Shown here piece by piece: positions 3,075-20,055 of a stretch of DNA of 32,455 nucleotides. Source of the stretch: a virus. Taxonomy: Duplodnaviria; Heunggongvirae; Uroviricota; Caudoviricetes. The stretch is from IMG/VR virus record IMGVR_UViG_2531839532_000012, positions 1 through 32,455 of that record; one strand, given 5' to 3'. The stretch's first letter is position 1, and every line of letters begins with the position of its first letter. Under the pieces are notes generated by a model. That model saw only the letters and a program-made list of their open reading frames with translations. It searched no databases and was not told the DNA's origin. The position numbers and the translations under genes were made by a program.

Positions 3075-4150
3075 ATGCTTCGCCACTTAACAGGACTCAG
3101 ATTTATAGCTGCATTAATGGTTTATTTATGCCATTTAAATACAGACTATTTTGGTGTTTTTGTAAAAGAAATGTTTTCCCAGGGATTTATTGGCGTTTCC
3201 TTTTTCTTTATTTTATCTGGCTTCATTCTTTCATATTCATATGAAGACAAGCTAAAAAATGAAGTAACAAGTAAAAGACAGTTTATTCTTTTAAGATTGG
3301 CAAGAATTGTTCCAATGCATCTATTATTAGCCATGCCATTTATTTTACTAACCATTCACTTAAAGAACTTTGATTTTTCAAAAACCTTAACAAATATTTT
3401 ATTAATGCAAAGTTGGATACCAAAGGAGGATTACTACTTCTCATTAAATGGTGTATCATGGTCTTTGTCTGATGAGCTGTTTTTTTATTTAATGTTTATT
3501 CCGTTGATTTATACATCAATTACAAAGAAAGTAATCACTGCAATATCAATTATAACTCTACTATTAACTATATATTTTTTAAAAATTATACAAACAGAAG
3601 AACTTAATCACTGGTTATATTATATATTCCCAGTAAGCCGCTTGGTAGAATTTATTTGCGGCATGATTATTTACGCTTGCTGGAAAAACAGCCGACAGCA
3701 GACAGTCGACAGTCGACAGTCGACAGTCGACAGTCGACAGTCGACAGTCGACAGTCGACAGTCGACAGCCTTTTGTTTTTAATTTCACTATTACCTCTGC
3801 TAATAGCTATATATTATAGCAACAACATAAATAATAGTCTACGTTATTCGTTATATTATTTACTCCCCATGGTAATATTCTTTACTTCATGCATCTATCT
3901 AAGAAATGGAGTCATTCATACTATCCTCAGTTCAAAAACCCTAGAGCTATTAGGGAAATCATCATTTATTTTTTATTTAATTCATCAACCCATTATATTA
4001 TTTTGCTTTAAAATCTTTGGACATAACCCCGGACCACTCTATTTAATAGCGCTCCTTGTTATAATAACCATAGTCTCAATCATACTTTATAAATTAGTTG
4101 AGGAGCCTTTAGAGCTGATGCTAAGAAAACGAATTTTAGCAGTAAAATAA
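3075..4150 (+). pseudogene. Acyltransferase-3 family membrane protein (O-acetyltransferase-like), split by frameshift at a heptamer repeat
   Basis: AAGAGG then ATG 3075. N-terminus MLRHLTGLRFIAALMVYLCHL fits acyltransferase_3 proteins and the product is multi-pass hydrophobic. Frame 1 stops at 3782; a second frame continues from the repeat to 4150. Low GC. Confidence 0.7.
3701..3763. repeat. Perfect tandem heptanucleotide repeat (GACAGTC) x9, with degenerate copies at 3694-3700 and 3764-3770
   Basis: Counted directly in the sequence. The unit contains a SalI site (GTCGAC). It sits inside the acyltransferase coding region. Confidence 0.95.
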
Positions 4151-15761: not shown

Positions 15762-16103
15762 TTACTCCTTCGATCTACCAAATTTGTTACCGATTACTCG
15801 CATTGCAGCCCCACGAATAGCATCGACACCGATCAGCCCCACGCCACCACCAATGGCAACAGAAAGCGATTTAGGCCATCCGACATACTCAAGAGCGGAT
15901 GCAAAGGTCAGCGTCAGAGCGCCACATAGCAAAATCTCGAGCGTTTTTCGCTTCCAGCCACCACCACCGCCAAAATAGGCGATGCGCAACCCAGCCATAA
16001 CGATCGACATAATCACTGCGCCCAGCGGTGTGTCTCCACGCCACCAACTTTGTAAGAGTTCCAGTAAGTCAGGCCAGGAATGAGGGACATTGTGCATTTT
16101 CAT
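15762..16103 (-). CDS. Holin with dual-start motif (Met-Lys-Met)
   Basis: ATGs at 16103 and 16097 give MKMHNV..., the lambda S antiholin/holin arrangement. GGAGG upstream. Hydrophobic helices. Directly upstream of the endolysin. Confidence 0.65.
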   Translation of the reverse strand: MKMHNVPHSWPDLLELLQSWWRGDTPLGAVIMSIVMAGLRIAYFGGGGGWKRKTLEILLCGALTLTFASALEYVGWPKSLSVAIGGGVGLIGVDAIRGAAMRVIGNKFGRSKE

Positions 16104-16320
16104 AAGCCTCACCTCCGAAAGTTCGGATGGTGCTAAATGTAAGATTCAGGCTCTCTGGCTTGCTCACAAGAAGTCGAGGATGTTTCCGGAGCCTAACAAC
16201 GAAAAAGCCCCGGGACATGCCAGGGCCAGATGGAGTACCAGATTAAGCTTCTGGCGGTATATCCTCGTGTTTGATATCGTTAAATCGCCAAAAGTAACCA
16301 TATCAATTAAAGGAGTATAT

Positions 16321-16599
16321 ATGGCTAGTTTTACTGTCCGCGTTGAGCTTGTGGGTGCATCATCCGATGACTACGCTCGCCTTCATGAGGCGATGGAATC
16401 CCGAAGATACTTTCGCGAAATTCAAGATGGAGCAGGAAACTGGTTTTATCTTCCAGACGCTGAGTACACAGCCGAAAAAAACGCATCTGCTCGCGCAGTC
16501 CGAGAAGAAGTTGTAGCCATCGCTGGGACAATAAAAAAGAACCCTCGGGTGCTAGTCACTCAAGCGGCAGATCGCTCATGGCATTTAATCAAGAAGTGA
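16321..16599 (+). CDS. Hypothetical 92-aa protein; opposite-strand moron between late promoter region and lysis cassette
   Basis: Strong SD AGGAG 5 nt before ATG 16321. Candidate terminator hairpin about 40 nt downstream. Family not recognised. Confidence 0.5.
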   Translation: MASFTVRVELVGASSDDYARLHEAMESRRYFREIQDGAGNWFYLPDAEYTAEKNASARAVREEVVAIAGTIKKNPRVLVTQAADRSWHLIKK

Positions 16600-16815
16600 G
16601 TTTTGATCGCCATTAACGGGTATTCCGTTCCCGCTACGCCCCTCACCAACCTCAGGGGCGCTTTCATAGCGCTCCATCGCAATAAACGCGGCAGCGATGC
16701 AATGCCCCAAATTTTCAAAATCATCCCCCCCCGGGTTAGCCCGAGCCACAATGAACTGACCCAGTGTGATTTTGGCCTGAGATCGGGAATCAGAAGATAA
16801 TTCATAAAATTTCAT
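16585..16815 (-). CDS. Hypothetical 76-aa protein, 3' end overlapping the convergent moron by 15 nt
   Basis: GGAG 8 nt before ATG 16815. Reality uncertain because a plus-strand terminator hairpin lies inside it. Confidence 0.3.
   Translation of the reverse strand: MKFYELSSDSRSQAKITLGQFIVARANPGGDDFENLGHCIAAAFIAMERYESAPEVGEGRSGNGIPVNGDQNSLLD
16637..16666 (+). terminator. Candidate terminator for the 16321-16599 moron (CGCCCCT-loop-AGGGGCG + CTTTC)
   Basis: Perfect 7-bp GC-rich stem with 10-nt loop and a short T-rich tail. Confidence 0.35.
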
Positions 16816-16952
16816 GGGTGTTCTCCAGAAACAACAAAACCCGCTCAATGGCGGGTTCTGGTAAAGTTCATGCGCTTGGTTCGCCTCGCGATACAGCTTT
16901 GCGAAGCGTACCGGGATTGAAGCAGTTTATGTGCAAAAATGCAAGAACTTTT

Positions 16953-17510
16953 TTAAAGCTGCATCAACCTTTCCACCAGTTTATCTCTGCGAACAACAAA
17001 CCAACCATTGGCTCTCGCCAGTTCCAGCCATGACTCAAGGGAAATAACAATATCATCATCCCGTAACTGAATTGTGGAAACAGTGACACCGCCTCTCTGA
17101 TAACAGAGAACTCGCGTGTCGTAACTTTTCTGGCATGAAACTGGCGTTGACGGATCCTTTTGACTGAAATAGCAGTCTTCCAGTTTTTCGAACACATCCC
17201 ATGCCTGATCGGTTTCGAGCATTTTGGCGTGGCGTGCTGCGCCTCGTTCTGTCCAGAGGATGAGGGAGCGGGCTTTGGGTGAAACTGGATTTTGTGAGTA
17301 GTTTAAAGCGACCCGCAATTCTTTAAGGTCATTACCAACAACTTTGAAAAAGTGTTTCCCTTCAACGAAGCGTACTTTGTTCTCATGATGATTCTGGCGA
17401 ATACGCACCGGCTCAGTGCCGTAAAGCTGCGCCAAAAGTTCGGTGGTAATAACAGGAATCTGGTTATGGGTGATCGGGGAGAGAGTTTCAACAGAGATTT
17501 GAGTGGTCAT
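16953..17510 (-). CDS. Antirepressor-like protein (185 aa)
   Basis: N-terminus MTTQISVETLSPITHNQIPVITTELLAQLYG...FVEGKHFF resembles the N-terminal domain of phage antirepressors. GGAG upstream. Confidence 0.5.
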   Translation of the reverse strand: MTTQISVETLSPITHNQIPVITTELLAQLYGTEPVRIRQNHHENKVRFVEGKHFFKVVGNDLKELRVALNYSQNPVSPKARSLILWTERGAARHAKMLETDQAWDVFEKLEDCYFSQKDPSTPVSCQKSYDTRVLCYQRGGVTVSTIQLRDDDIVISLESWLELARANGWFVVRRDKLVERLMQL

Positions 17511-17673
17511 AACGATAACTCCGTACATTTGGACATTATCGCCACCGTCAGGTGCTAATCATCGTGGTGGCGAACTGTGCGGGGTTAGCACTACCGGGTA
17601 CGGAACCCGGCGAGCCTTTCGGCTCCCCCACACAGCCCGCCATAAATCGCGAATGTGACTGTGCAAACGATAT

Positions 17674-17697
17674 GAAAAAAAGACGCGGGCGCGTCTC
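17674..17697 (-). terminator. Rho-independent terminator downstream of the late promoter (tR'-like)
   Basis: Minus strand GAGACGCGCCCGCGTCT followed by TTTTTTT, about 90 nt downstream of the Q stop. Confidence 0.55.
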
Positions 17698-17751
17698 ATA
17701 TCGCTCCGTAAACATCCGGGGTGCTAATCCCGACGCCAGATTTTGCTGGCG

Positions 17752-17790
17752 CGTGAGGAATATAGCCCCGGATAACAGATTGAGTCAACA
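17752..17790 (-). promoter_or_regulatory. Candidate late promoter PR' (TTGACT-N18-TATATT) with adjacent hairpin (possible qut/pause region)
   Basis: Hexamers read on the minus strand overlapping the Q stop codon. Followed by hairpin CGCCAG-caaaat-CTGGCG and then the terminator. Confidence 0.45.
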
Positions 17791-18339
17791 GACGGTTTTT
17801 AGATCCCCGGAAGAGAATGCATCACGCATCGGTAGATAGAGCATATATTCAGCAAGATTTAGCCATACATCTACCCGACTGCAGCACGTCCGGAAACACC
17901 ACTCGGGGTGTGCATCATTCAACAGTTCAGCCATTTTGCGCTTGGTCATCCCCCTCCCTTCATAGCGTTGCCGGAGAATGCAAATCAATCCTGGATGCTC
18001 TGCCAGCACCTCACTTATGACTCGATCAATACATAACGCCTCTGCATCAGTACAATGCGCCAGCCAGCTCTTTTGCTTGCCGTTGATCATCTCTCTCAAA
18101 AACGCTTCCAGCTCAGCTTTCTCTATTCCCGCTTTTTTCATTCTGCGCAGGGCTTCATTGATGGCTGTTTTCGTCAATTTTTTGGATGCCAACAACTGAT
18201 TGAACATATTTCCTGACCTGCCACCGCCAATATACGACCAGCGCCCCCACATACGCAGTTTGCCCCGAATCCAGACACTTTCCAGCGTGGTGAGACGAAG
18301 GTGTTCTCCGCTTTTTCCTGTATTCGTTGGGTAAATCAC
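17785..18339 (-). CDS. Late-gene antiterminator Q (184 aa from GTG; longer 224-aa ATG-initiated frame also possible)
   Basis: Motif LRMWGRW near the N-terminus, position upstream of PR' and lysis genes. GTG 18339 has strong SD AAGGAGG and overlaps the upstream stop (GTGA). Confidence 0.55.
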   Translation of the reverse strand: MIYPTNTGKSGEHLRLTTLESVWIRGKLRMWGRWSYIGGGRSGNMFNQLLASKKLTKTAINEALRRMKKAGIEKAELEAFLREMINGKQKSWLAHCTDAEALCIDRVISEVLAEHPGLICILRQRYEGRGMTKRKMAELLNDAHPEWCFRTCCSRVDVWLNLAEYMLYLPMRDAFSSGDLKTVC

Positions 18340-19690: not shown

Positions 19691-19717
19691 CAACAAAAAA
19701 CCCGCCGAAGCGGGTTT
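19691..19717 (-). terminator. Terminator at the 3' end of hok mRNA (AAACCCGC-ttcg-GCGGGTTT + U-run)
   Basis: Perfect hairpin with TTCG loop followed by TTTTTTG on the minus strand, about 70 nt past the hok stop. Confidence 0.5.
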
Positions 19718-19784
19718 AGTGCGGGTGCGTTGAGGATGCCTGACACATGAGAGGTGGCGAGGGATTTCTCCCCCGCCTGGTCTC

Positions 19785-19940
19785 TTACTCCTCAGATTCG
19801 TAAGCTGTGAAGACAGCAACCTCCGTCTGGCCGGTACGGATTCGTACCTCGCAGAGGTCTTTCCTCGTTACCAGTGCCGTCACTATGACGGTTAAACAGA
19901 TGACGATCAGGGCGATTAACATCGCCTTTTGCTGCTTCAT
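19785..19940 (-). CDS. hok: Hok/Gef-family type I toxin (51 aa)
   Basis: MKQQKAMLIALIVICLTVIVTALVTRKDLCEVRIRTGQTEVAVFTAYESEE, near-identical to recalled HokD/RelF. SD GGAGAAG. Confidence 0.85.
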   Translation of the reverse strand: MKQQKAMLIALIVICLTVIVTALVTRKDLCEVRIRTGQTEVAVFTAYESEE

Positions 19941-19996
19941 AGCCTGCTTCTCCTTGACCTTTCGGTCCGTAAGAGGCTAATCTCTATGTGTCGCAT
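19937..19996 (-). CDS. mok-like leader ORF (19 aa) whose stop overlaps the hok start
   Basis: ATG 19996, stop TGA overlapping hok ATG (ATGA). Analogous to mok coupling in hok/sok loci. Confidence 0.4.
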   Translation of the reverse strand: MRHIEISLLRTERSRRSRL

Positions 19997-20055
19997 AGAT
20001 ATGGCCTCAGATTAATGTTAAGCGTCTTGCAGGACGCGTAATGTTAACTGGGGCT
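19954..20055 (+). ncRNA. sok: Candidate Sok antisense RNA with promoter (TTGACC-N18-TAATCT), antisense to the hok leader
   Basis: Strong promoter hexamers on the plus strand opposite the hok translation-initiation region. RNA ends are inferred. Confidence 0.4.

Follow-up and report, generated by a model that had tools for sequence, protein, structure and literature searches.

A conserved convergent gene pair at the head of the late operon of an Escherichia coli lambdoid prophage: a possible excludon-type switch between lysogeny and lysis

Two convergent genes between the antirepressor and the holin

The DNA analyzed here, IMG/VR virus record IMGVR_UViG_2531839532_000012 over its full length of 32,455 nucleotides (nt; hereafter the window), is an E. 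coli lambdoid prophage, and the region under study within it is 99.9% identical to strain 300709, in which it corresponds to positions 2,208,821-2,209,658 of CP025903. In this region, which is bounded on one side by the gene of an ORF6N antirepressor (16953-17528, minus strand) and on the other by that of a lambda-family holin (15762-16112, minus strand), two small genes, ORF1 and ORF2, face each other and overlap at their 3' ends by 15 nt (16585..16599). ORF1 is located on the plus strand (16321..16599; ATG at 16321, TGA at 16597-16599), encodes 92 amino acids and is preceded by the Shine-Dalgarno sequence AAGGAG (16310-16315), 5 nt 5' of the start codon. ORF2 is located on the minus strand (16585..16815; ATG at 16815, TAA at 16587-16585), encodes 76 amino acids and has the Shine-Dalgarno sequence GGAG (16823..16826) 7 nt 5' of its ATG. 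Both genes, together with their Shine-Dalgarno sequences and the 15-nt overlap, had been proposed in an earlier reading made from the DNA letters (the sequence-only reading), and they were recovered at exactly these coordinates. Both are real genes. RefSeq annotates each of them, the product of ORF1 matched phrog_8894 over its full length (E 3e-38) and that of ORF2 matched phrog_26625 over its full length (E 5e-49), these being PHROG families of unknown function. Both proteins were previously catalogued as hypothetical families. Both genes are under purifying selection, with ratios of nonsynonymous to synonymous substitution (dN/dS) of 0.06-0.23 for ORF1 and 0.2-0.45 for ORF2, and variation in both is highest at third codon positions. 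An open reading frame of 65 amino acids on the plus strand (16603-16800), antisense to ORF2, was rejected as a true gene, the substitutions fitting the frame of ORF2.

The genes for the Q-like antiterminator (DUF1133; 17785-18339), the holin, and the lysozyme and then Rz that come after the holin are all on the minus strand, and ORF1 is therefore antisense to late transcription, as the sequence-only reading had supposed. Directly upstream of ORF2, a terminator scan identified a tR'-like intrinsic terminator with a 10-bp stem and a U-run (16835..16860, minus strand). It ends ~10 nt before the Shine-Dalgarno sequence of ORF2, and the ATG follows ~10 nt further on (~20 nt from the terminator). 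The same succession of hairpin, U-run, TTTCTGGAG and ATG AAA TT precedes ORF2 homologues in other phages, in which the stems differ yet pair. Terminator hairpins with compensatory changes were found at this position in eight loci and in L074, L077 and L079, and the latter three also carry the TTTCTGGAG motif, which lies 3' of the terminator and includes the ORF2 Shine-Dalgarno sequence. Upstream of the terminator lies a pR'-like promoter (TTGCAT-17 nt-TTCAAT; 16916..16944, minus strand). The same promoter sequence is present directly after Q in phage vB_EcoS-473R12, whose Q is 87% identical to that of the window and is directly followed by the counterpart of window positions 16826-16950. We infer that the region 16828-16944 constitutes a pR'/tR' unit. 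The RNA predicted to run between the two signals (~80 nt, from ~16909 to 16828) folds with z = -3.4 and holds the place that isrJ occupies in Gifsy-1. Short pR' transcripts are known from lambda, as the 6S RNA, and from Shiga toxin (Stx) phages, and the ~80-nt RNA of the window would resemble them.

Because ORF2 starts so close behind a strong terminator that a promoter for it alone would not fit between them, it leads the Q-dependent late operon and is not a moron. The sequence-only reading had described the locus as an opposite-strand moron with a possible convergent partner; of this, opposite-strand cargo in a variable slot was confirmed for ORF1 (18 versus 1,121 genomes, as detailed below), and ORF2 is no second moron. 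RNA polymerase would thus reach ORF2 solely after Q antitermination, or by read-through. No U-tract terminator is present between ORF1 and ORF2 on either strand. Judging from this layout, late transcription must cross all of ORF1 in antisense and then meet a hairpin before the holin (16227-16206). This second terminator-like hairpin, also found in the terminator scan (16206..16227, minus strand), separates the cargo slot from the holin gene, and its position is kept with changed stems in L002, L003, L006, L008 and many IMG/VR loci. In other prophages, tRNA genes follow the site of this hairpin, as in Stx phages.

Downstream of ORF1, a G+C-rich hairpin with an 8-bp stem lies within the ORF2 coding sequence (16654..16675, plus strand). 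The surrounding 86-nt stretch folds with z = -2.2; the folding analysis of this region covered eight loci. Since the hairpin has no U-tract and is positioned inside ORF2, it is not a canonical terminator; the downstream hairpin claimed for ORF1 in the sequence-only reading thus exists, but not in the form of a regular terminator. The hairpin coincides with the codons for the conserved motif MER(Y/H)(E/D)SAP of ORF2 and with the junction between the conserved domain and the variable tail of this protein. This is also the point at which the conserved domain of ORF2 is joined to differing tails and to differing ORF1 subtypes.

Fold, family and conserved pairing of ORF1 and ORF2

An AlphaFold2 model of ORF1, generated from 19 homologues, had a predicted local distance difference test (pLDDT) score of 94.8 and showed a ferredoxin-like beta-alpha-beta-beta-alpha-beta fold, which is the fold of GhoS and is Cas2-like; GhoS was the top structural match of the model. 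The sequence comparisons point the same way, though weakly. Among the 19 relatives of ORF1, 11 matched Pfam GhoS at E <= 1 (best E 8.7e-5), the ORF1-family partner from Photorhabdus carries a precomputed Pfam GhoS match, and two relatives have been named GhoS and DUF2622 by NCBI. A literature search on DUF2622 returned no papers. When the ORF1 family was aligned directly with E. coli GhoS by hhalign, the probability was 19% only. The alignment, which is of low confidence but in register, placed H22 of ORF1 on the catalytic R28 of GhoS and E9 on D15; of all GhoS residues, R28 reportedly matters most to its activity (PMC4010927). Near-invariant polar residues among 149 representatives of the family were R7 (100%), Y18 (99%), H22 (94%), E48 (97%), Y49 (99%) and E9 (87%). 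A profile search of PDB sequences with ORF1 returned nothing relevant, with GhoS undetected, and no viral structure (BFVD) was matched by Foldseek with an E value under 0.007. ORF1 encodes a small soluble protein, and its fold and family suggest that it may bind or cleave RNA.

The clearest sequence relative of ORF1 is YmfI of the K-12 prophage e14, with an hhalign probability of 94%. A BLASTP comparison of ORF1 with YmfI returned nothing, and the link emerged with profiles only. ORF1 matched the NCBIfam model YmfI_phage (NF051477) over its full length with 59 bits (E 4.8e-16), and K-12 YmfI itself scores 161.5 bits on this model. As 59 bits is below the 140-bit cut-off, ORF1 belongs to the same superfamily as a sister family of YmfI and is not an equivalog. 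The statement of the sequence-only reading that neither protein could be recognized is accordingly superseded for ORF1, which has a GhoS/Cas2-like fold and a homologue in YmfI. An exhaustive profile search at E <= 0.001 placed 2,387 representative clusters in the ORF1 family, a lower bound with clusters defined at 50% identity, and nearly all of these are stand-alone proteins of 92-100 amino acids. Matches in genomes came from Gamma- and Alphaproteobacteria, Acidobacteriota, Longimicrobium, and metagenome-assembled genomes of a deltaproteobacterium and of Binataceae. The sole long protein with an ORF1 domain (P0048, 499 amino acids) looks like an integrase reading through into a separate ORF1 gene and was not accepted as a true fusion.

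For ORF2, the AlphaFold2 model was of moderate quality (pLDDT 67 overall), with a mean of ~79 over residues 1-50 (74-86 per block of 10 residues), and it contains two helices (8-25 and 33-49) arranged as a hairpin and followed by a disordered variable tail. ORF2 matched nothing in Pfam, NCBIfam, PADLOC or PDB. According to a profile search, the ORF2 family comprises 89 clusters and is found exclusively in Enterobacterales.

We examined 14 ORF2 clusters, from E. coli (two), Enterobacter (two), Kluyvera (two), Silvania, Klebsiella aerogenes, K. pneumoniae, Salmonella, Serratia, Photorhabdus, Rahnella and Xenorhabdus. A convergent ORF1-family gene was found beside ORF2 in 13 of the 14, with a spacing that ranges from the 15-nt overlap to genes that directly abut, a range covering loci L005, L006, L008, L018-L024, L028 and L074-L079. 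The possible convergent partner of the sequence-only reading is therefore real and is conserved with ORF1, and the overlap is probably not incidental. The pairing is kept behind four antiterminator families (DUF1133, PF06323, PF06530 and PF03589), and the pair adjoins several holin and endolysin families. In Xenorhabdus (L005), the pair is located within a tail operon, where the genes for the tail chaperones flank it on one side and that for the tape measure on the other, with ORF2 along the direction of the operon and ORF1 opposed to it. Across 5,426 complete E. coli genomes, ORF1 is present in 18 and ORF2 in 23, and none of the 18 that carry ORF1 lacks ORF2. The conserved domain of ORF2 is found together with three ORF1 subtypes, including one that is near YmfI, and the point of exchange is the start of the ORF2 tail; the ORF2 variants paired with these three subtypes are 61-84% identical to ORF2 of the window. 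What is new in this analysis is the fold assignment, the family link between GhoS, YmfI and ORF1, the conserved convergent module with a partner in the late operon, and a two-sided cargo platform that is described in the last section.

A possible excludon-type switch and the alternatives to it

In prophage e14, ymfI and ymfJ are likewise convergent and overlap by 63 nt. The pair has been listed as a convergent excludon on the basis of RNA sequencing (PMC12288877), and ymfJ is strongly induced late in the SOS response (log2 fold change 4.8, ~30-fold), when ymfI changes little (PMC11002266). ORF1 is thus homologous to the first gene of a known convergent pair, and it shares with that gene a prophage location and a convergent partner that overlaps its 3' end on the strand induced at prophage derepression, features that we ourselves drew from e14 as the standard of comparison. 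By analogy, antisense control between ORF1 and ORF2, which the sequence-only reading had suggested, is plausible. The two systems also differ: YmfJ and ORF2 are not related, the e14 pair is next to int/xis and the repressor genes, whereas ORF2 belongs to the late operon, and the e14 proteins are without known function. No homology was seen when ORF2 was compared with YmfJ by BLASTP, or by hhalign with YmfJ and with the convergent partners of L007 and L030. Excludons are convergent or divergent neighbours whose overlapping transcripts make their expression mutually exclusive. With excludons in general, the window shares convergent genes whose transcripts must overlap, given the 15-nt coding overlap, an arrangement known here from the sequence. 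It departs from them in that one arm is part of an antiterminated late operon, so that interference would be strongly one-sided.

We propose, with a probability of roughly 45%, that ORF1 and ORF2 form a conserved convergent two-gene cassette acting as an excludon-type lysogeny/lysis switch, in which ORF1 is silenced by late transcription. The proposal starts from two real genes, the fold of ORF1, its homology to YmfI, the conservation of the pair and the terminator in front of ORF2. ORF1 would be the lysogen-side component, made while the prophage is quiet and binding or cleaving RNA. Once Q fires, late transcription would pass the terminator, enter ORF2 and continue in antisense through ORF1 and its translation start, and ORF1 would be silenced by polymerase collision and antisense RNA. 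The ORF2 protein may, by contact, neutralize ORF1 protein that is already present, and the benefit to the prophage may lie in defence or in self-control. If this model holds, the locus would unite GhoS-type ribonucleases (RNases), antisense control of the excludon kind and antitermination by Q in a single compact module, and would provide a first functional handle on K-12 YmfI and on a large and widespread family of small proteins. In a fuller and unlikely version of the proposal, the ORF1 family, which extends over many phyla, would consist of uncharacterized, metal-independent RNA endonucleases of the GhoS/Cas2 fold, with R7, Y18, H22, E48 and Y49 as the catalytic residues, which Enterobacterales temperate phages have wired into their lysogeny switch against invading phage RNA or leaky lytic transcripts, and which are shut off by Q-antiterminated antisense transcription together with ORF2 as an inhibitor. 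This would amount to a new two-component prophage system with its 'antidote' under transcription antitermination.

Several observations weigh against a coupled switch. ORF1 itself gave no match to Pfam GhoS (PF11080) at E <= 1, and the curated threshold was not reached. On the plus strand upstream of ORF1, the tool scan found no promoter, and the best candidate of a relaxed scan had 8/12 matches with a 19-nt spacer; as no promoter of sigma-70 quality was found, expression of ORF1 in the lysogen is a supposition. The candidate promoter named in the sequence-only reading was thus not recovered, and its place is taken by a conserved hairpin (16269-16308). In addition, ORF2 occurs without ORF1 in five E. 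coli genomes (e.g., in locus L002), where the break falls exactly after the ORF1 stop codon and a gene for a protein of 189 amino acids is substituted. The shuffling of ORF1 subtypes argues against tight co-evolution of the two proteins, except possibly in the variable tail of ORF2. For most ORF1-family members beyond Enterobacterales, no ORF2-like partner is evident, and three YmfI-type genes have unrelated convergent partners, namely YmfJ and those in L030 and L007. The other cargo of the slot also forms convergent overlapping pairs, one consisting of an open reading frame for ~50 P/Q-rich amino acids and one for 189 amino acids, and another of a DUF2441 open reading frame for 179 amino acids and one for 74 amino acids; as these pairs are likewise convergent and overlapping, some of the geometry may belong to the slot and not to the ORF1/ORF2 pair.

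The alternative that survives best, a serious one even if we consider it improbable, is that the two genes are independent and share a crowded slot, ORF2 being an accessory late protein, ORF1 an unrelated moron and the overlap a by-product of packing. The precise break in the five ORF2-only genomes, the convergent geometry of the other slot cargo, the shuffled subtypes and the far wider distribution of the ORF1 family (2,387 clusters versus 89 for ORF2) are all in line with independence. However, packing in one slot accounts less well for a convergent ORF1-family partner in 13 of 14 ORF2 clusters despite their differing Q, holin and endolysin families, or for a pair that moves as a unit, as in the Xenorhabdus tail operon outside the Q-holin slot. 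In e14 and in Serratia, the YmfI-type genes likewise overlap a convergent partner, at different places in the prophage; in the Serratia prophage (L030), the YmfI-type gene and its partner lie beside a cI-like repressor gene. If the genes are independent, what is left of the finding is a pair of hypothetical proteins in a moron hotspot of a familiar kind. As an observation on the Serratia locus, the partner (L030, 3276-3494) is unrelated to ORF2 in its N-terminal part and ends in GNGIPIPGG, which resembles GNGIPVNGD in the tail of the window ORF2. The two are paired with the same ORF1 subtype.

Quite unlikely, in our view, is a role in anti-phage defence or superinfection exclusion, in which ORF1 would be an RNA-targeting effector or sensor and ORF2 the phage's own antidote during the lytic cycle. 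The rarity of the cassette and the variability of the slot would fit such a role, as would several gene neighbourhoods. In a Klebsiella aerogenes prophage (L028, 3687-5021), a KAP-family nucleoside triphosphatase (NTPase) gene lies between Q and the ORF1/ORF2 pair, opposite to the late strand, and it matched the PADLOC candidate PDC-S20 (E 5e-176). Beyond Enterobacterales, distant ORF1 homologues stand in same-strand, operon-like rows of genes: between a DndB-like gene and a nucleotidyltransferase gene that is followed by a Cap15-type cyclic-dinucleotide receptor (L015, 2794-5826), beside genes for a multiubiquitin protein and a ThiF-type E1 (L016, 1201-3185), and after an AAA_16 ATPase gene (L011, 2754-4300). 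However, these neighbourhoods come from a handful of loci, and a search of PADLOC-DB 2.0 with ORF1, ORF2 and two ORF1 relatives matched no defence model.

The resemblance to GhoS raises a further alternative, that of a lysis guard similar to a type V toxin-antitoxin system, in which lysogens would use ORF1 to cut late or holin mRNA that arises by leakage, and Q-driven antisense transcription and ORF2 would lift the block. GhoS is a non-toxic RNase that cleaves ghoT mRNA, and over-production of GhoT leads to ghost-like cells (PMC4010927); this precedent, the rank of GhoS as top structural match and the two terminators that insulate the holin, suggesting that leakage matters, speak for a guard. 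So does the position of the pair immediately upstream of the holin in the window and in L006, L008, L028, L074-L077 and L079, and within the Q-to-lysis interval in L018-L024. We nevertheless consider this model less probable still than a defence role. The pair in the tail operon of L005 and the YmfI-type genes in the pL-side regions of L030 and e14 are far from holins, distant ORF1 homologues are found in defence-type operons that are not of phage origin, and the neighbouring holins come from several unrelated families, which makes a common RNA target sequence unlikely.

Nor is a GhoT-like peptide gene adjacent, none being present in the list of open reading frames for 16113-16950. When compared with GhoS of the type V GhoT/GhoS system (E. 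coli YjdK, PDB 2LLZ), ORF1 has a similar fold with 14% identity, and R28 appears to be replaced by H22 in the ORF1 family according to the low-confidence alignment. In place of a small co-directional membrane toxin gene, ORF1 has a convergent partner whose product is soluble and helical. On sequence criteria, ORF1 is distantly related to GhoS and stands outside the GhoT/GhoS system. With Cas2, the CRISPR adaptation protein and a reported endoribonuclease, it shares the fold and no detectable sequence similarity, and the annotation of the identical RefSeq locus lists neither cas1 nor another cas gene within 6 kb. A classical toxin-antitoxin pair of two proteins, of the VapD-VapX type with its Cas2-fold toxin, can largely be set aside. 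The Cas2-like fold would suit the toxin, the small ORF2 with its folded N-terminal part and disordered tail is built like many antitoxins, and no E. coli genome has ORF1 without ORF2. However, the two genes converge and are not co-transcribed as in type II systems, the relatives of ORF1 are solitary in most loci beyond Enterobacterales, and ORF2, being behind a terminator, would be silent in the lysogen, the reverse of what an antitoxin requires.

The cargo slot and its surroundings

In lambdoid phages, the interval between Q with its pR'-tR' signals and the lysis genes is a known site of cargo, such as stx in Stx phages and nmpC in DLP12, the latter on the opposite strand. ORF1 has the same position, is present in few relatives and lies on the opposite strand like nmpC. 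It differs from such morons in that no autonomous promoter or terminator was identified for it and in that its partner ORF2 is an integral late gene. The flanks of the slot were found in 1,121 of the 5,426 complete E. coli genomes, with the ORF1 cassette in 18 only, and the same slot holds other genes in other prophages.

Just 5' of the ORF1 Shine-Dalgarno sequence lies the conserved hairpin mentioned above (16269..16308; core 16279-16299), which has a 14-bp stem and a 12-nt loop and carries AATCGCCAAAAG on the plus strand. Its 21-nt core was matched exactly in 40 IMG/VR contigs and is located 20-25 nt 5' of the start of a plus-strand open reading frame wherever one could be called. The hairpin precedes at least six unrelated cargo families, namely ORF1, YmfI-like proteins, the DUF2441 protein of 179 amino acids, a zinc-ribbon protein of 67 amino acids, P/Q-rich peptides of ~50 amino acids and a protein of 165 amino acids. 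More distant relatives keep the left arm and the loop only. Two outer stem pairs covary (C-G/U-A and A-U/G-C), and the covariation counts gave 87.9% paired cells for the late strand and 82.1% for the plus strand; the inner part of the hairpin is invariant by construction of the search, and only the outer stem is informative in these counts. One position discriminates between the strands, being paired in 20/20 cases on the late strand (G-U or A-U) and in 6/20 on the plus strand, where the rest are A-C mismatches. In the plus-strand fold, predicted pairing joins the ORF1 Shine-Dalgarno sequence to CCUC (16263-16266), which lies at the hairpin base, and such pairing with an upstream pyrimidine tract was seen in ~19/26 variants. 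The evidence on the strand is mixed: the wobble pairs favour a late-strand RNA, and the Shine-Dalgarno pairing is on the plus strand. The hairpin sequence belongs to no Rfam family, and a literature search on it returned no paper. An open reading frame of 45 amino acids on the late strand (16301-16164) was rejected as a gene, as it has no Shine-Dalgarno sequence and is 11 or 20 codons long only in other loci. Its ATG (GTG in many relatives) lies in the hairpin, it runs through the pre-holin terminator, its first 11 codons alone are conserved, and its length elsewhere ranges from 11 to 45 codons.

The slot at the head of the late operon is thus present in many enterobacterial prophages and is framed by two platforms. 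The late strand has a terminator with a Shine-Dalgarno sequence and the opposite strand a hairpin with another, and both platforms could be used to find further cargo. An alternative cassette behind the same hairpin consists of a plus-strand open reading frame for ~47-71 P/Q-rich amino acids that is convergent with, and overlaps, the minus-strand gene for the protein of 189 amino acids, which is without a Pfam match (L002, 3336-3905 and ~3150-3300; L003, 3155-3370 and 3339-3908; L025, 2839-3408).

An Rfam scan of 16113-16950 matched no family. Between Q and the antirepressor gene, the scan identified the isrK small RNA (74 bits), the C4 antisense RNA (77 bits) and the c4 a1/b1 targets (50 bits) at 17563-17765 on the minus strand, a module that we liken to P1 immI and to IsrK-AnrP of Gifsy-1. 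The order antQ-isrK-orf45-anrP of Gifsy-1 (PMC4825925) is the same as in the window. At its end, the Q gene overlaps a sigma-70-like promoter (TTGACT-18 nt-TATATT, 17788-17759). Elsewhere in the window, a second, weak match to isrK (30.6 bits, under the threshold) and a partial one to the sok antitoxin RNA were found at 19695-19782 and 19938-20000, and these adjoin hokD, which is annotated in the identical RefSeq locus.

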